Below, in pieces: positions 32,685 through 40,622 of a DNA stretch of 64,000 nucleotides (position 1 is the stretch's first letter; the number at the start of each line of letters is the position of its first letter). A program made the translations under genes and the position numbers. Source of the DNA: Spirochaetota bacterium (GTDB taxonomy: Bacteria; Spirochaetota; GWE2-31-10; MWDO01); the NCBI GenBank assembly GCA_031549085.1, contig JAVBQL010000021.1, positions 5,422-69,421 on the forward strand, given 5' to 3'. The notes under the pieces are model-generated. The model made no database searches and had not been told where the DNA came from. It saw only the letters and a list, made by a program, of their open reading frames with translations.

Positions 32685-32851
32685 TGTTGTTTCACTCCAG
32701 ATTAAGTTTGAAAGGGATACTATTTATATGAAAGATTATAATAAAATAAAAGGGATTTGTCAAAAGTAAGAGTGATATGAATATTAAGAGAACAATATAT
32801 AACACTTGACTTTGTTATCATAATTTAGTAAAAAAGGATAGAATCATACAT

Positions 32852-32970
32852 GATTCCTTCGGGGATAGGTGAAACTCCATACCGGCGGTAAAAGCCCGCG
32901 AGTCTTTAAAAAGACAGAACTGATGTGATTTCAGTGCCGACAGTAACAGTCTGGATGATAGAAGGAATGT
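32852..32970 (+). ncRNA. FMN riboswitch (RFN element)
   Basis: TTCGGGG..GGTGAAA.TCC.TACCGGCGGT..AGCCCGCGA...GCCGACAGTAACAGTCTGGATG..AGAAGG upstream of ribD. Confidence 0.96.
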
Positions 32971-33073: not shown

Positions 33074-34126
33074 ATGTTTTTCTTTAACAACAGAGATGAC
33101 TACTTTATGTCTCTTGCATTAAAAGAGGCAAAGAGAGGATTGGGCTATACCACTCCAAATCCTATGGTTGGGGCAGTTCTTGTGAGACATGGAAGAGTAT
33201 TGGGGAAAGCATTTCATAGAGCTTTGGGAGCTCTCCATGCAGAGAGAGAGCTTATTGAGCAGATGTCTCCAAATCTTCTACAAGGTTCTACACTCTATGT
33301 TACTCTGGAACCATGCAATCATGAGGGGAGAACGCCTCCCTGTGCCCCGCTTATCATAAAGTCTGGCATAAAGAAAGTTGTAATTGCTACCCTTGATCCT
33401 GACAAAAGAGTCAATACAAGTGGGGTTAGGGCTCTGAAAAGTGCTGGTATAGATGTAAAGCTTGGTGTGATGGAGGAGGAGGCAAAAGAGCTTAACAATA
33501 TCTATATGTTCTATAAAAAAAATAGTCGACCATATATTGTTTTGAAAGCAGCTCTTACATTAGATGGGAAGATAGCCACCTCAAGCTTTGACTCAAAATG
33601 GATATCTAATGATATGTCAAGAGAGATTGTTCATAGGTTAAGGTTAAGGCTTAAGGCAATTGCTATAGGAAAAAATACAATTAAACAGGATTTTCCAAAA
33701 TTGAATTGTAGACTAAAAGGTTTTGAGGATAAGCCTATTGATAAACTAATATTTTCTAATAGAGAAGATTTGAGACTTACAAAATCATTTGCTGAAAATA
33801 GTGGAAAAACGCTATTTGTTTCAAAGGCACTCTCTAAAGATGAAGATAATTTTTTCAAGTTTTGTACAGATAATGAGATTGACTCTATTTTAGTAGAGGG
33901 GGGAAGTGGGGTATACTCATATTTTCTAAAGAAAAGTATGGTTGATAAGATCTTTCTTTTTTATAAACCAAGTTTTCTTGGTGTTGATGGAGTATCCATT
34001 TTTCAAAAAAAGGGAGTAAAATTTATAAAAGATTTGAATGAATTCAAAATCGATTGTGTAACACAGCTTGATAATAATTTTATGATCGAGATGTCAAGAG
34101 GAGAGTCTCTATGTTTACTGGATTGA
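33074..34126 (+). CDS. ribD: Riboflavin biosynthesis deaminase/reductase
   Basis: PNPMVGAV, HAE, TLEPCNHEGRTPPC, TLDGKIA, LVEGG. Confidence 0.96.
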   Translation: MFFFNNRDDYFMSLALKEAKRGLGYTTPNPMVGAVLVRHGRVLGKAFHRALGALHAERELIEQMSPNLLQGSTLYVTLEPCNHEGRTPPCAPLIIKSGIKKVVIATLDPDKRVNTSGVRALKSAGIDVKLGVMEEEAKELNNIYMFYKKNSRPYIVLKAALTLDGKIATSSFDSKWISNDMSREIVHRLRLRLKAIAIGKNTIKQDFPKLNCRLKGFEDKPIDKLIFSNREDLRLTKSFAENSGKTLFVSKALSKDEDNFFKFCTDNEIDSILVEGGSGVYSYFLKKSMVDKIFLFYKPSFLGVDGVSIFQKKGVKFIKDLNEFKIDCVTQLDNNFMIEMSRGESLCLLD

Positions 34127-34704
34127 TTGAGGAACTTGGAGTTTTGGAGTCTATCGAAAGCTCTGGAAAGATGACAATTAAGGCTAATAAGATATTAGAT
34201 GACCTAAAAATTGGAGATAGTGTTGCTGTAAATGGAGCTTGTCTAACTGTTACAGCGATAAAGGGTAATCTAATCTCATTTCATATATCAGAAACCACAA
34301 GAAAGTTATCAAATTTTAAGTATGGCTCTATTCGTGTTGGAGAGGAGCTAAATCTTGAGAGAGCTATGAAAATTAATGATAGGTTTGGTGGTCATCTTGT
34401 TGCAGGGCATATTGATGGCACTGCTAAAATTATTGATATAAGAAAGAGTGGGCTTGATAATTTTTTTGAGTTTCTCGTTGATAGGGAGAGCATAAAGCTT
34501 ATTGTAAACAAGGGCTCTATTACTATTGATGGGATATCTCTAACTATAAGTGAGGTAAAAAACAGCAGCTTTGTTGTAACGATTATCCCTGAGACTATAA
34601 AAAATACAAACCTTAAACAGAAGCATGTTAATGATTTGGTACATATAGAGATTGATATGATTGCAAGGTATCTAAAGAGCATTATTGCTAACTTTGGATA
34701 TTAG
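34111..34704 (+). CDS. ribE: Riboflavin synthase (alpha chain)
   Basis: MFTGLIEE, GDSVAVNGACLTV, NLERA, GGHLVAGHID. Confidence 0.96.
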   Translation: MFTGLIEELGVLESIESSGKMTIKANKILDDLKIGDSVAVNGACLTVTAIKGNLISFHISETTRKLSNFKYGSIRVGEELNLERAMKINDRFGGHLVAGHIDGTAKIIDIRKSGLDNFFEFLVDRESIKLIVNKGSITIDGISLTISEVKNSSFVVTIIPETIKNTNLKQKHVNDLVHIEIDMIARYLKSIIANFGY

Positions 34705-34901
34705 AAGGGGGGCGTTTTTTATACACCTCTCCCCCCCCAACCCCCTCTCCTTGTTATGAGAGGGGGAGTTTAAGAGAGCTTGATTGCTCATTAGAGATCG
34801 ATTTCTCTTTTTTATGATATGCAAGTCGATTTTTTAAATCGTAAACGATTAGAAAAAATCTTTGTTGCATATCACAGCAAGAGAAATCTGTTTCCTAAAG
34901 T
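34705..34901 (+). repeat. Dispersed hairpin element, copy A (REP/MITE-like)
   Basis: C-rich arm with a CCCCCTCTC/GAGAGGGGG stem, then a ~90-110 bp imperfect palindrome GATTTCTCTT...AAGAGAAATC; homologous to the reverse complement of 38291-38470. Confidence 0.85.
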
Positions 34902-34969
34902 GATTAGGTTTTATATAAAAAAAATTTGAAAATAGTTTATCTACTTTATTTTATAGAGGAGTTATATTT

Positions 34970-36154
34970 ATGCAAGATATGAAAAAGGTAATTGAGAGAT
35001 TTAGTAATGGTGAGATAGTTATTGTTTTTGATGATCTCTATCGTGAGAATGAGGCAGATTTAATTGTTGCAATTGATAAGTTAAGCCCAGAGAAGATCAC
35101 TTTCTTGATAACTTATGGAAGGGGTATTCTTTGTGCCTCATTGAATGAGGAGATAGTAAGAAAAAAGGGGTTTCCTCTTGCACCAAGCAACAAGGCAGAC
35201 AAGCATGCAACAGCATTTACTCTTGCAGTGGATTCTGTTAAAACAAAGACAGGGGTCTCTGCTATTGAGAGATATGTAACGGCAAAAGAGCTTGTAAATC
35301 CAAATACTACACTAAAAGATTTTGTTACACCAGGCCACCTCTATCCATTAAGGGCTAGAGCAGGCCACCTTCTTGAGAGGAGAGGTCATACAGAGGCTGC
35401 AGTGTCTTTATGTAAGTGGGCGAAGCTTACAGAGGCCGCTCTGATTTGTGAGATGGTTAAAGATGATGGAAATATGCTCTCAATTGAGGAGACAAAAGAG
35501 TTTGCTAACAAATTTGGTATTCCATTCTGTACAGTAGAGGAGCTTGTAGAGTATCAAAAGCTTAACTATACAAATGTATCAAAACTAGCAGAATCAAAAT
35601 TGGCTACAAAATATGGAAAGTTTGATATAAAAATATATCAAGAGCTATATACAAATAAAGAGCATGTTTTTCTCTCTATGGGTGATTATACAAAAGGTGT
35701 GGTGCGTATCCACTCTGAATGTGCAACAGGGGATATTTTTCACTCTGTTATGTGTGATTGTGGTTATCAACTTGAGAAATCTTTGGAGACAATTGCTAAA
35801 AATGGTTCTGGAGCCGTTGTATATTTAAGACAAGAGGGGAGAGGAATTGGTTTGTCAGAGAAGATAAAGGCCTATAAACTTCAGCAGGATGAGAAACTTG
35901 ATACTGTTGAGGCTAATATAAAGCTTGGCCATTTCGAAGATGAGAGGGATTTTCATCAGGCAGCATGGATTCTTAAAGAGAATGGGTTTAAAACTGTAAG
36001 GCTATTAACAAACAACCCACTTAAGCTTAAAGCATTAGAGAAACATGGTTTTACTGTAGTTAGAGAGACCCTACCTCCAAATATAACAGATGAGAATAGA
36101 GAGTATCTAAAAACTAAAAAAAATAAGATGGGACATATTATCGATAATATATAG
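34970..36154 (+). CDS. ribBA: Bifunctional DHBP synthase / GTP cyclohydrolase II
   Basis: RENEADL, RRGHTEA, RIHSECATGD, CDCG, RQEGRGIG, LLTNNP. Confidence 0.96.
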   Translation: MQDMKKVIERFSNGEIVIVFDDLYRENEADLIVAIDKLSPEKITFLITYGRGILCASLNEEIVRKKGFPLAPSNKADKHATAFTLAVDSVKTKTGVSAIERYVTAKELVNPNTTLKDFVTPGHLYPLRARAGHLLERRGHTEAAVSLCKWAKLTEAALICEMVKDDGNMLSIEETKEFANKFGIPFCTVEELVEYQKLNYTNVSKLAESKLATKYGKFDIKIYQELYTNKEHVFLSMGDYTKGVVRIHSECATGDIFHSVMCDCGYQLEKSLETIAKNGSGAVVYLRQEGRGIGLSEKIKAYKLQQDEKLDTVEANIKLGHFEDERDFHQAAWILKENGFKTVRLLTNNPLKLKALEKHGFTVVRETLPPNITDENREYLKTKKNKMGHIIDNI

Positions 36155-36260
36155 TTTTTTATTTTTAAATAACCACATCCTTTTTGATATATATTTTTTA
36201 TAAAAGGGATTTTTTATTTCTAATTTGGCTGGGATATTTTGAAAATAATTTTTAATAAAA

Positions 36261-36294
36261 AAGCGGAGCTATCTATTTAATAGATAGCTCCGCT
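36261..36294. terminator. Terminator hairpin; U-tail on the minus strand
   Basis: AAGCGGAGCTATCTA-TTTAA-TAGATAGCTCCGCTT preceded by an A-run. Confidence 0.85.
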
Positions 36295-36316
36295 TATATA
36301 ATAGATTAATTAAATT

Positions 36317-37691
36317 TTATGGTGTGTCCCATGTAAAGCTTGCTGGAGGATTTGTCCAGTAGTTTGGATCTGTGCCTTTTATATCTCTAATAATCGCAGG
36401 ACCATCTTCTCCTTTATAGATTTTGCTCTTATTTCCATAGCCTCTATAAAGTGCATAGAGATCATTAGCTACAGTGGCTGTTCCATCTTTTGCATATATA
36501 TTGCAGTTTGATATGGTTGCCATAGCTGTAATTGATCCACCGCTCTCAATACCATAAGCATCTCCTGAACTACTATCTTCAACAGCTCCTGTTATTGTGC
36601 CGCCGCTTATGGTAAGTATGCCCCGATTATTTCTAACACCGATAGCAGAACCCACCACACTAGCACTACCATTTGTTCCTGCTATTGTACCACTATTTAT
36701 AGTAGTAGTTCCACTATTATAAATACCACAAGAATAACTACCAACAGTAGTGTTATCTGTTGCTCCAACTATAACTCCACCTTTGATGATAAGGTCTCCA
36801 TTACCATCAAAACCATAAGCAGAACTATCAACAGTTGCACTATCAGCTGCTCCTATTATTGTTCCTCCATTGATGGTACAACCCCCATAACCATTAAAAC
36901 CAGAAGCATTACTAACAGTTGTGCTATCTTTTGCACCAACTATTGTCCCACTATTTATGATAGTAGTTCCATTGCCCATAAGAGCATGGGCCGACCAAGC
37001 AGTAGCAGTGCCGCTTGCTCCTACTATCATACTATTATTGATAGTTATTGTAGAGTTACTTATAATAGTCATAGTAGACATATTATAGAGAGGATAAATA
37101 TAAATAGCATAAGCATCGCTTGTCACCACTCCGCTCTCTACACCCACTATATCACAATTATTAATTGTTAATTTTGTTCCCGTACCATAGATTCCATAGG
37201 CTCTCTCATTGTTATATTTAGCTCCCCTTATATCAAGGTTTTCAAGCACTAGCTCTCCAGCTCTCACTGTTATACGACCAGTATTACTTGCTGTTGCATT
37301 ATCTCCATTTATGGTACTCTTGTCATTGATATCATCTCTTGTCCAAGTAGAGTTGTAGCCGCCCTTTATGGTAGTGCTATATAGAGAGGTGATATTGATC
37401 AACTCACTATATGTTTCCTTTGCTACATAGATGACATTATTTTTAGCTTTTGCCATGCTGACGGCTTTCGATATTGTCTTCACTGGCGAAATTTGAGTTC
37501 CCATATTACTATCATCACCAGCAGTTGATACATAGATTATTGCCTCTTCTGCAACATACTCCTCGCCATCTCCACCCTTGTCATTAACTCCGCCAGCCCC
37601 ATCACAGCCAACAAAAATAGCCATAATAAAAAAAAAACATTGCCAAAGCAATAAAAAAGAGTCCTCTCTTTTTCGTGCGACTGAAATTCAT
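36317..37691 (-). CDS. Beta-helix (DUF1565/pectin-lyase-like) surface lipoprotein, frameshifted at a T10 tract in its signal peptide
   Basis: AGGAGG then ATG at 37691; YVSTAGDDSNMGT..SPVKTISKAV motif; ~27-30 aa TI.(S/G)GTI.GA repeats. With T9 the signal peptide joins the FVGC lipobox in frame. Confidence 0.8.
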
Positions 37692-37870
37692 AAAATTCCT
37701 CCTAAAAAAATAGAAATAATATTTAAACTATAAAAAATATAGTTTTGTCTAAATTTGATAACAAACAAACATTTAATTATTAAAACCAAACATTTGATTA
37801 TCTTTCTACGATAATATTCTACATAGTTCTTGTTTTTTGTTGAGAGACTTATGTTAAAGATTTGATAGGT

Positions 37871-38080
37871 AAAAACACATAAGCCTGCAAAACAAGGGTC
37901 GCACACCACTACTCTTAACCCTACTTAATTCGCTTAAAGAGCAGATAGTCCTTGCAGTGCAGGCTTATCTATGGCTTGTTGAAAACCGCATAGATTTTCT
38001 ATACAGCTTTGCCATTAGCCAAATTTAGTAGGGTTTGAAAAGCAAGGTGTCTATTCTTATATTGAGGTGCGACCCTCTCT
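37871..38080 (-). ncRNA. Candidate structured 5' leader with alternative or pseudoknot helices
   Basis: Perfect helices 38067-38076/37895-37904 (10 bp), 38027-38035/37917-37925 (9 bp) and 37958-37968/37879-37889 (11 bp), plus a 13-bp GU-containing hairpin at 37982-38010. Confidence 0.65.
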
Positions 38081-38168
38081 ACAAAAACCACCATATAAAT
38101 ATGTCTAAATAATAGTTAAATTAAATAACTTTAATAAAACTCCTCGATTTTTTTATATATTATTTAAG

Positions 38169-38197
38169 ATTATATGATTATAATAGAGAAAAATCAA
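38169..38197 (-). promoter_or_regulatory. Sigma70-type promoter for the leader and lipoprotein
   Basis: TTGATT-17bp-TATAAT on the minus strand. Confidence 0.65.
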
Positions 38198-38290
38198 GAA
38201 ATAAAATTAGAAAATTGGATACACAAAACTATAAACTTCTTATAAAACTTCAAATTAAACTTTGTTTAATAGTTAGGTTTAAGCTTTATA

Positions 38291-38470
38291 ACTTTAGCAA
38301 ATAGATTTCTCTTGTTGTGATATGCATCAAAGATTTTTTTCTTAATTGCGAAGCAATTTCAAAAAAAATTGGCTTGCATATTGCAAAAAAAAGAGAAATC
38401 GAGCGCTAAAGAGCTATTCTTTCTTTTAAAGCCCCTTTTTGAAAAGGGGGGGTGGGGGGTTTAGAAAAAA
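38291..38470 (-). repeat. Dispersed hairpin element, copy B
   Basis: The reverse complement aligns with 34726-34901: C-rich arm, then TCGATTTCTCTTTTTT..ATATGCAAG..GAAAAAATCTTTG.TGCATATCACA.CAAGAGAAATCT.TTT.CTAAAGT. Confidence 0.85.
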
Positions 38471-38474
38471 AGCT

Positions 38475-40622
38475 CTATACCACCTCAATAACAAGGACAG
38501 CCATATCATCATCTCTAACAGTTATGTCAACTTTAAAGTAGTTTATATCTTCCATTAAGTTTGGTATTATATTTTTACTATCTTTTGTGGTTTGAAGTAT
38601 TCTCTTTACTCTATCATATCCATATAGCTCTCTGTTGGAGTTTTTTGCTTCAACTATCCCATCTGTGAATAGTACGATTGTATCTTTTGATTTAATCTCT
38701 ATTTTATGTGATTTAAATACATCATCAAGTCTTAACCCTACAACTGTCGATGTTGATTTTATTGTCTCAATTTTATCTTTGTTTACTATATATGTATCAC
38801 AGTGAGCACCACTTATATACTCCAAGCTCTTCTCTTTTGTATCAATGACGCCATAAAAGAGAGTCATATAGTATCCTAAATAGCCAACACTATCATAAAT
38901 CTGCTTATTTACCCTATTAACAACCTCTTGAGGCTCCATTCCTTCTTTAACATATGTGGAGAACATAAATTTTGTCATTGTTGTGACTAAAGATGGCGGT
39001 ATCCCATGCCCAGAAACATCAAGCATAACAACAGCAATCTTTGTTTTTGATATTTCAATTACATCATAAAAATCACCGCCAAGCTTCTCCATAGCATAAT
39101 AGTAACTATATATTTTGAAATTTTTATTTGAAGGAAAATTTTGAGGAATTATTGCCTCTTGAATTTTCTTTGCAATTACAAGCTCATTTTCCATTCTGTT
39201 ATTTATATCTAGCAATTTTCTATTTGATATATTAAGCTCTTCGGTGCGCTGTTCAACAATACTGTCTGTATGTTTTTTATACCTATTTATCATTCTTGTC
39301 ATCTTATTGAATGCAATACCCAAAATGTAGAATTCAGAAAAGAATGATTTTACATCTATTTGAACATCGAATTTTCCCTTTGCTATCTCATTTGATGCAT
39401 GGAACAAAACAAATATTGGTCTTGTTAATGCTGTACTTAATAAAAGTGTTATAACCATTACTATATTGATAAAAATTAGTGCAGTGATACCTATAAATTC
39501 AATAATATTTGCAGCAACACCCATAGCTTTTTTGTATGGAATAAAATAGAGAAGTTTTATTTTTGATATTTAGGAAGTTTTAAAAACAACAATATATTTA
39601 AGATTGTTATATTTAACAACAACCCTATTTTTTTCTGTGTAGACGTCACTATTTTTTTCTATTAACTCTTGTATCTTTGGATCATTTATTATATTGCTGT
39701 CAGTGTTTAGATATTTATAGTCACTAAAGTCAACCTTATCATATTGTTCTTCACTCTTCTCTTTTTCAGTAGAAATATATTTTTTTTGTTCATAGTCATA
39801 TTCATAATAATTATTATCAGATGGGTGTGTCTGCATTATTATATTATTATTTATATCAAGCATATAGAGTGTACCTTGATTGAAATTTGTTATATTTTCG
39901 AAAGTTATCTCAAAAAAATTTTTACGAAGTATAACTAATATAAAATCTGAAAATGTTTCACTACTTCTATTGTTGTCATAGAAATCACTATAGTAAAAAG
40001 GGAAAATAATTATAGTTGAATCTTTTTGAAAGTAGTTGGTTAATACTCCCTCTCTAGGTTTTCCAATTATTATTTTTATATTATTATCACTCTTTATTTT
40101 CTGAAAGAGTGGGTCAGCAATCAGTTTTTCATAATTTGGTGGTATTATATCAGGGTTTGGTGTGTAGTATTTGTATGGAGTTTTGTCTATTATTGAGGCC
40201 TTATCTTGCTCATAGATAAATATATCTCCATAAATTTTTTTTTCTGCAATCTCTCTTATTCCCCCCTCTATTCCAAGTCCCCCTCTATATTTATAATATT
40301 GGCCAATTATTTTTCTACTGACCTCTCTCTCTTCTGCAGAATCTCTAAATTTTTCTAAATCTATTCCCTCTATAACCTCTTGTTTTTCAAATATATTGGT
40401 TAGTGTCATAAGATATTGCTCATATATAAAATCTATGTTTGTATTTATCTGTTTTAAGATTGAGTTTTGATAGTTTAAGGTTATGCCTTCTAAATTCTTT
40501 GTTAGATCTGTTTGTGAGTAGGTTGTTATTATTAATATTGGTATTATTGACATGGCGAAGAGGGTGAAAAACAATATCCATCGAATACTCAATTTTACTT
40601 TTCTAAAGCCCAAATTTGACAT
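38475..40622 (-). pseudogene. Cache-HAMP-PP2C (SpoIIE/RsbU-type) sensor phosphatase split by an in-frame TAA at 39572-39570
   Basis: The two ORFs share one frame, reading ...VVFKTS*ISKIKLLYFIPYKKAMGV...; PP2C motifs GGDFYD, DVSGHG, FTDGIVE, DDM. Confidence 0.8.

Follow-up and report, generated by a model that had tools for sequence, protein, structure and literature searches.

Closest described repeats and the element in the window

REP, BIME and REPIN sequences are dispersed extragenic hairpins that often lie just after stop codons and are accompanied by RAYT (Y1 HUH) transposases. The attC sites of integrons also stand behind a gene, conserve structure over sequence and fold on their bottom strand, and Correia, ERIC, RUP and SPRITE are small repeats resembling miniature inverted-repeat transposable elements (MITEs). 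The element described here occurs twice, as copies A and B, in a 64,000-nt stretch (hereafter the window) of contig JAVBQL010000021.1 from a Spirochaetota bacterium (assembly GCA_031549085.1), where the copies follow the riboflavin synthase gene ribE and a phosphatase gene, respectively. Each copy combines a short triplex-type motif (unit 1) with a long hairpin (unit 2). Genome-wide searches show both copies to be members of a lineage-restricted, non-coding composite DNA repeat of which ~80 copies have settled just behind genes. We put at about even the chance that this composite is, or once was, a mobile DNA repeat in which the bottom strand carries the structure and would fold as single-stranded DNA.

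Unit 1 has its closest counterparts in BoxC, the PIT elements and TM_ECO, known from E. coli and other bacteria as intrastrand triplex repeats of class II (PMC4666352, with Hoyne et al. 2000 and Hoyne and Maher 2002 as cited there). Triplex-type repeats abound in bacteria, and neither a function nor a mobilising enzyme is known for them (PMC4666352). As in unit 1, a pyrimidine arm, a purine arm and a mirror purine arm follow one another on one strand with short loops in between, and the triads are G.G-C and A/T.A-T. These repeats are likewise described as intergenic, multi-copy and patchily distributed among close relatives, with no transposase or integrase nearby. TM_ECO differs in being unrelated to unit 1 in sequence, unit 1 being A/T-mixed and residing in a 32% G+C genome, and neither the printed TM_ECO consensus pattern nor a loosened version of it has a match there. 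Furthermore, a triplex fold of TM_ECO has been demonstrated in vitro, whereas that of unit 1 is predicted from sequence, and the E. coli repeats are without orientation bias (PMC4666352), whereas the present repeat keeps a fixed orientation and distance behind stop codons. Finally, the triplex-type motif is here coupled to a second, much longer hairpin unit.

This second unit resembles REP/REPIN sequences and, in its layout and folded strand, attC sites, yet it lacks the tested membership features of each. With REP/REPIN sequences it shares its lineage specificity, a presumed action as single-stranded DNA and an occurrence in composite clusters. However, no Y1 transposase gene was found in the assembly, unit 2 measures ~90 nt instead of 20-40 nt, near-identical copies are absent (0/3003 pairs among 78 aligned copies reach 90% identity), and it is the internal loop and middle stem that are conserved while the arms are copy-specific. 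Like an attC site, unit 2 has a basal and a second stem separated by an unpaired spacer, and its tip is variable, but the copies are dispersed behind housekeeping genes and not collected in cassette arrays, no integron integrase was found in the assembly, and by eye no R-box consensus was seen at the hairpin foot, the conserved letters lying mid-hairpin. The composite as a whole also recalls MITE-like repeats, which are non-coding, 100-200 bp long, form hairpins, insert beside genes and may be co-transcribed (general descriptions in PMC4666352 and PMC3184786). Unlike in these, its putative ends, unit 1 and the foot of unit 2, are unrelated in sequence, so that terminal inverted repeats appear to be missing; a target duplication was not detected (below ~8 nt it would not be visible), and searches for DDE_Tnp_1, IS110 and the TnpB zinc ribbon returned no parent transposase. 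Searches of the literature on spirochaete REP-type and mirror or triplex repeats, with subscription journals outside the coverage, turned up no triplex unit coupled to a long hairpin.

Family, placement and the two copies

The assembly searched comprises 2.68 Mb in 33 contigs with 32% G+C and is 88% complete; the sequencing run containing this DNA carries the label of an invertebrate gut metagenome. A profile search with nhmmer returned 58 non-overlapping loci for the long hairpin, and a covariance model, built from 22 copies with a structure that we specified, gave 93 matches, corresponding to 80 distinct loci after opposite-strand shadows had been dropped. The original prediction, made from the window alone, had proposed a dispersed REP- or MITE-like family and had named the existence of only two copies without covariation as the outcome that would speak against it; the ~80 copies support the former and run against the latter. 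They are spread across at least 20 contigs, among housekeeping genes, and the model finds only copies A and B inside the window.

Outside this genome, the covariance model matched 0/40 related genomes, including 5 same-family genomes from 4 other genera, and a unit 1 pattern with 19 matches in the genome had 0 in 40 relatives. A pattern scan of one genome per species (185,579 species) gave 6 matches, to which the covariance model fits in the core only, at 21-25 bits. These were rejected as family members, since the fit is confined to the core and the one match inspected seems to be coding sequence. Collections of phage and plasmid records contained no match to the repeat. In Rfam at the gathering threshold, the window yields only an FMN riboswitch at 32851-32970 and nothing on the copies, in line with the original prediction, which had called the element unrecognised. 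Relaxed Rfam scans of the copies returned microRNA-type hairpins of at most 24 bits, and a known RNA family was discarded as an identification. The copies have diverged deeply, with a median pairwise identity of 47%, a median nearest-neighbour identity of 71% and a best pair at 89%. As no pair reaches 90% identity, there is no sign of a recent burst or spread.

The composite is shown to consist of two units in fixed order and orientation: unit 1 stands upstream of unit 2 and forward at 49/80 loci, and it was found neither reversed in that place nor forward downstream (0 loci each). According to our own crude open reading frame (ORF) calls, 79/80 copies are intergenic. The upstream gene is co-oriented with the copy at 60/80 loci, and where a single gene end faces the gap, the copy is oriented with that gene in 32 cases versus 7. 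Replication as the factor setting orientation was considered and rejected, the bias being weak (47 vs 33) and overridden by gene direction; where gene direction and GC skew disagree, 6 copies follow the gene and 2 the skew. The distance from the stop codon to the first C-run has a median of 16 nt, and the stop before unit 1 is TAG in 25/41 genes, compared to 36.5% genome-wide (binomial p = 0.0017). A TAG stop can pair with the CTA ahead of the third arm.

Copy A lies at 34705-34901 (+) and copy B at 38470-38291 (-). Both the positions and the bipartite build given in the original prediction are borne out: a C-rich arm and a C/G hairpin followed by a long imperfect palindrome are found in each copy, each starts right behind a TAG stop, and each is oriented as its upstream gene. 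The two copies are 80% identical across ~130 nt. Their parts, together with the adjoining genes, are as follows.

34111-34704 (+): ribE (riboflavin synthase, Lum_binding), with its TAG stop at 34702-34704 directly 5' of copy A
34705-34714 (+): copy A, G-rich block with partial complementarity to the third arm; control-comparison score 12
34726-34738 (+): copy A, unit 1, third arm, a pyrimidine tract mirroring the hairpin 5' arm, followed by a 2-nt linker
34741-34766 (+): copy A, unit 1, hairpin with pyrimidine arm, 4-nt loop and purine arm
34800-34888 (+): copy A, unit 2, long hairpin; covariance-model match 34783-34907
34970-36154 (+): ribBA, 265 nt from ribE
38304-38400 (-): copy B, unit 2, long hairpin; covariance-model match 38287-38415
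38432-38449 (-): copy B, unit 1, hairpin with arm CCCCTTTT, loop CA and arm AAAAGGGG
38454-38459 (-): copy B, unit 1, third-arm C-run, with CTAAA and a T-run ahead of it
38475-39524 (-): SpoIIE/PP2C-type phosphatase gene, with its TAG stop at 38477-38475 ahead of copy B

Folded as single-stranded DNA, the long palindromes do much better than shuffled sequences: the two strands of copy A gave z values of -6.2 and -7.4, and those of copy B -3.2 and -3.9. In unit 2 of copy A, the internal loop places GTC (34825-34827) opposite TTTG (34861-34864), the middle stem pairs a T-run with an A-run, and the apical hairpin is variable. The apical stems of the two copies differ by paired changes (AATCG/CGATT vs AATTGC/GCAATT), and the GCGAAGC motif was located at 38348-38354 on the + strand of the window, both in agreement with the original description. 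A fourth arm, formed by an upstream G-rich block pairing with the third arm, was considered and rejected as a general feature, since only a minority of copies have such a block and only 6/53 loci lie above the 95th percentile of the controls; the copy A score of 12 is right at that percentile. Directly after the copy B hairpin (~38254-38283, -), there is a second hairpin foot together with the 3' flank motif that is typical after other copies, which suggests a remnant of an older copy or a nested insertion.

Triplex-type motif, long hairpin and the folding strand

On the strand of the upstream gene, the 5' arm of the unit 1 hairpin invariably consists of pyrimidines and the 3' arm of purines. 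The C-rich arm ahead of this hairpin had been recognised in the original prediction, but its mirror relation to the hairpin arm, and with it the triplex-type design, had been overlooked. The gene's strand reads third arm, linker of 2-3 nt, pyrimidine arm, loop and purine arm; the opposite (bottom) strand reads pyrimidine arm, loop, purine arm, linker and mirror purine arm. This three-block class II layout was found in 53 oriented loci and is present in copy A too, with a triad stem of 11 including 1 mismatch. Copy B was missed by the scripted scan in its orientation, and its layout of 8 triads was read by eye.

According to Holder et al. 2015 (PMC4666352), the triad rules for the class II purine motif allow G.G-C and either A.A-T or T.A-T. 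On the gene's strand, the rule of C opposite C and A or T opposite T is followed at 234/250 positions in the 53 oriented loci. Across the 15 distinct patterns containing both C and T, it is followed at 82/86 positions, with C mirrored at 31/34, compared to 28-34 of 86 positions in shifted registers, and 0/2000 permutations of the third arm reached 31 mirrored C. Under the ITxF criteria (stem 6-15, at most 1 mismatch, loops of 1-6 nt; PMC4666352), 43/53 loci are within the limits at a stem of at least 8, and 49/53 at a stem of at least 6. Opposite A-T pairs, the third arm carries A 97 times and T 83 times on the gene's strand, a mixture permitted by the purine motif on the bottom strand but not by a pyrimidine motif on the top strand. 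Mirror symmetry can be derived neither from Watson-Crick pairing nor from template switching; it represents the signature of an intrastrand triplex. Unit 1 has, at the level of its sequence, the defining features of a class II intrastrand triplex motif. A purine-motif triplex cannot form in RNA, as stated in PMC4666352 with reference to Semerad and Maher, and unit 1 thus points to DNA.

Unit 2 is a hairpin of ~90 nt whose arms differ between copies yet stay complementary. In the model alignment of 78 copies, the internal loop is asymmetric and nearly invariant, with the GTC letters kept in 63-71/78 copies and the TTTG letters in 60-78/78. It is accompanied by a middle stem of T-run and A-run, by outer arms peculiar to each copy and by an apical hairpin that varies. 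The compensatory change first suggested by copies A and B extends to the family, since in the 22-copy alignment both partners change at 27/38 pairs (138 cells). The covariation score was 0.391, compared to at most 0.124 for slid partners, and was reached by 0/500 shuffles. Among the 78 aligned copies, 2396 cells are Watson-Crick pairs and 365 are not. At a median identity of 47%, such pairing has been maintained well beyond what sequence similarity would carry.

The mismatches that do occur are distributed unevenly. On the gene's strand, the 78-copy alignment contains 141 A.C and 66 G.U cells overall, and at three purine-pyrimidine pairs beside the conserved core there are 51 A.C vs 4 G.T, where independence would predict ~71 and ~24. 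An alignment-free motif check gave 12 A.C vs 2 G.T in this genome and 4 vs 0 in a sister organism recovered from metagenomes (see below). The bottom strand also folds better as RNA in 41/57 copies. The gene's strand thus shuns G.T and almost accepts A.C; on the bottom strand, these cells amount to accepted G.T wobbles and shunned A.C mismatches, and the selected fold therefore lies on that strand. In terms of sequence signatures, the structured strand of units 1 and 2 is shown to be the bottom strand, i.e. the template of the upstream gene.

This strand assignment bears directly on the possibility that the repeat acts as an RNA element on the sense strand, in the 3' untranslated region (3'-UTR), as an mRNA stabiliser or terminator that spread because it was useful or harmless. 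The close spacing behind genes (median 16 nt past the stop) and the co-orientation with the upstream gene at 60/80 loci would follow naturally from such a role, and at one locus (contig C17, ~101.8 kb) a canonical hairpin-plus-T-run comes after the composite. In addition, a contig from an RNA library, at 38373-38852, extends from the end of the phosphatase gene through unit 1 into the first part of unit 2 of copy B, which makes transcription of the top strand through unit 1 probable. No RNA contig is present in a 0.9-kb stretch next to it that has a DNA depth of 12x, and the contigs give neither strand nor ends. No RNA contig is listed over the whole of unit 2 of either copy, which says nothing on expression. 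A sense-strand RNA, which the original prediction had offered as one option, is nevertheless contradicted by the unit 2 mismatches, as G.U would have to be avoided and A.C tolerated (4 vs 51 at the three pairs, 66 vs 141 overall), and a pyrimidine-motif triplex in unit 1 would be broken at 97/185 A-T positions. Moreover, no intrinsic terminator (G+C-rich hairpin plus T-run) or similar site is predicted at copy A or B, whereas the same scan finds one at 36261-36295, copy A is positioned inside the rib operon between ribE and ribBA, and the element was not found in the same-family genomes searched. On this balance, we regard a sense-strand role as improbable.

The converse possibility is that the copies are genes for small antisense RNAs on the bottom strand, starting just outside the foot of the long hairpin, passing through it and ending near unit 1, and thereby converging on the upstream gene. 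The wobble asymmetry fits such a transcript, with G.U tolerated and A.C avoided on the bottom strand, and pairing survives deep divergence. In many copies, an A/T-rich, -10-like block also occurs at a fixed distance from the hairpin foot (columns 195-206). On the other hand, inspection by eye revealed no -35 element, no fixed promoter spacing and no convincing -35/-10 pair beside the foot, and the bottom strand is without a terminator-like tail. The mirror third arm would have no role, since the purine-motif triplex does not form in RNA according to PMC4666352. Some 80 paralogues in a single lineage, located at non-orthologous places in a sister organism, would also be unusual for RNA genes. 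Antisense transcripts are therefore an unlikely explanation, though somewhat less so than a sense-strand one.

A third explanation dispenses with function altogether. In it, the repeats are inert palindromic junk without present function or mobility, in which template-switch correction during replication keeps the arms complementary. The lack of recent copies (best pair 89%, median nearest neighbour 71%) and of a partner enzyme in searches of the assembly would be expected in this case, and for the closest known triplex repeats, likewise, neither a function nor mobility genes were found (PMC4666352). Template switching, however, yields inverted and not mirror repeats, which leaves the co-varying third arm unexplained. 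Neither the strand-biased pattern of A.C vs G.T nor the persistence of a nearly invariant asymmetric internal loop would be expected, and we find this explanation harder still to accept than either RNA reading.

The reading as a DNA repeat would instead involve folding of the bottom strand as single-stranded DNA, with the hairpin lying beside the triplex, and spread through recognition of structure and not of sequence. The orientation behind genes could then result from selection after insertion, the C-rich strand being tolerated as the transcribed sense strand. A more specific proposal is that ~80 gene ends carry, on the template strand, a two-part DNA fold, composed of a purine-motif triplex and a hairpin with a conserved asymmetric loop, that is read as single-stranded DNA, either by a structure-specific enzyme of a new class which would copy the element or as a gene-end signal acting on polymerases. 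Two independent signatures in the sequence speak for such a fold. We consider this a speculative and rather doubtful extension. If a two-part DNA fold were true, a partner hairpin and a fixed relation to genes would be added to the triplex-type repeats, the role of which has been an open question since the 1990s, and that question would become directly testable.

The lineage is unusually informative in this respect, as it offers many unit 1 variants in which three arms change together. The fixed place and direction behind genes add to this, as do a second hairpin unit whose mismatch pattern names the folding strand and a sister organism with the same composite at different places. Concrete handles thereby become available, namely a strand, an arm and a loop to mutate or probe. 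For annotation, the repeat carries a warning, with ~80 gene junctions widened by insertions, one of them within the riboflavin operon.

Turnover, mobility and neighbouring features

In 4/5 same-family genomes, ribE and ribBA abut or overlap, with ribD, ribE and ribBA packed together; here, ribE and ribBA are 265 nt apart, which indicates that copy A was inserted inside the riboflavin operon. The empty site for which the original prediction had suggested searching relatives is thus present at ribE/ribBA in those four genomes. As the FMN riboswitch (108 bits) at 32851-32970 lies upstream of ribD, copy A sits within a riboswitch-controlled operon.

Turnover of the repeat is also evident from metagenomes, a scan of which gave 17 pattern matches, 10 of them confirmed by the covariance model. 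The contigs with copies carry genes that are 74-83% identical to genes of this genome, and the copies accordingly belong to a sister organism, in which the order of the units is the same. Eight flanks from 6 loci of the sister organism could be matched to this genome, and at the corresponding places the model found 0/8 matches; at two of the matched flanks, the genes here lie 0 and 10 nt apart. With none of the matched flanks carrying a copy here, the composite has been gained or lost at many sites since the lineages split.

Long target duplications had been suspected both at ribE/ribBA and on sister contig L128. They were rejected, as comparison of the gene end with the distal flank gave a mean score of 16.8 vs 16.4 in controls, and only 2/58 loci exceeded the 99th percentile, both of them low-complexity A-runs. 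Contig L128 itself holds a separate observation: compared to C17:114900-114990, its positions 1030-1160 contain an extra ~73 nt flanked by a ~12-nt direct repeat, the junction being closed in this genome. This extra stretch is distinct from the composite repeat.

A spreading enzyme was sought in the 88%-complete assembly. The original prediction had suggested an HUH enzyme of the RAYT or IS200-like type, a suggestion that finds no support, Y1_Tnp (PF01797), a profile with matches in 6 control genomes, having none in the assembly. Nor were RAYT/TnpA genes found between facing copies, the genes bracketed there being housekeeping genes; nine such genes were scanned, and all were ordinary or without a family. 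Y2_Tnp had no match in the assembly either, although this profile matched no control genome and its silence has little weight. For the integron integrase TIGR02249, the best score was 70 bits, compared to a cut-off of 265, as in all control genomes.

Copies A and B do face each other around ribBA and the lipoprotein gene, as originally described, and being 80% identical over ~130 nt, they could in principle, as a pair of inverted repeats, bring about inversion or mobilisation of the 3.4 kb in between. This proposal found no support. The order and orientation of ribE and ribBA are as in relatives, the two copies are merely two of ~80 units, each behind its own gene, and a DNA contig in one orientation spans copy B and the whole interval, with no joints reported. 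What lies between the copies of seven further facing pairs is likewise ordinary, e.g. genes for FlhB, FliR, an aldolase and a CLC channel, which makes the bracket around ribBA and the lipoprotein gene appear incidental. Inversion or mobilisation of the interval is, by a wide margin, the least credible of the explanations considered.

Several points weigh against a mobile or once-mobile repeat folding as single-stranded DNA. Concerning mobility, the assembly has no match to Y1_Tnp, TnpB zinc ribbon, DDE_Tnp_1, RVT_1, IS110 or DUF559; its one rve protein and four tyrosine recombinases show no link to the repeat, the rve protein being located at C17:51 kb with the nearest copy 6 kb off. Without any pair of copies at 90% identity, recent spread has left no trace, and at 58 loci no gene-end duplication was found beyond the element, duplications shorter than ~8 nt being beyond detection. 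The orientation of the repeat tracks transcription and not replication, an outcome that the known single-strand transposons using the lagging-strand template would not give, and the gene calls behind the placement are the crude ones mentioned above. Concerning the fold, both structures are derived from sequence statistics. Wobbles in the unit 1 hairpin number 11 vs 2, but 6/11 are at the stem end, and they are too few to name a strand. In unit 2, G.U exceeds A.C on the gene's strand at the apical pairs 69/128 and 73/123, and a bottom-strand RNA would show G.T wobbles just as a bottom-strand DNA would. The RNA-library contig that runs from the phosphatase 3' end through unit 1 into unit 2 of copy B belongs on this side as well.

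The remaining features of the interval lie between the two copies. Where ribBA and the lipoprotein gene converge, a canonical hairpin of 16 bp that contains G+C and has a T-run is found at 36261-36295. Conventional intrinsic terminators, from which the repeat units differ, are therefore in use in this genome. In the lipoprotein gene (-), the frame with the ATG and a signal-peptide-like start and the long ORF (36317-37651) are one base apart near a T-run at ~37651-37700, which could reflect a frameshift, slippage or a sequencing error. The gap between copy B and this gene measures ~640 nt and includes a G+C-richer, structured-looking stretch at ~37910-38110. The region 37910-38290 has no Rfam match, and the 73-aa ORF called there has no Pfam match.

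Finally, a third dispersed family was noticed, for which a regex gave at least 51 matches across the genome. An A-run comes after its conserved core, GTCAAAAAGGACGTGGC. One copy directly follows the ribBA stop (window 36155-36235, with the regex match at 36187, -), and others occur, e.g., upstream of C5:51486 and at C4:18893. At several loci, a copy of this third family is located within unit 1, where it separates the first C-run from the hairpin. On its reverse strand, the family resembles TTGACA, 17 nt, GAATAT.

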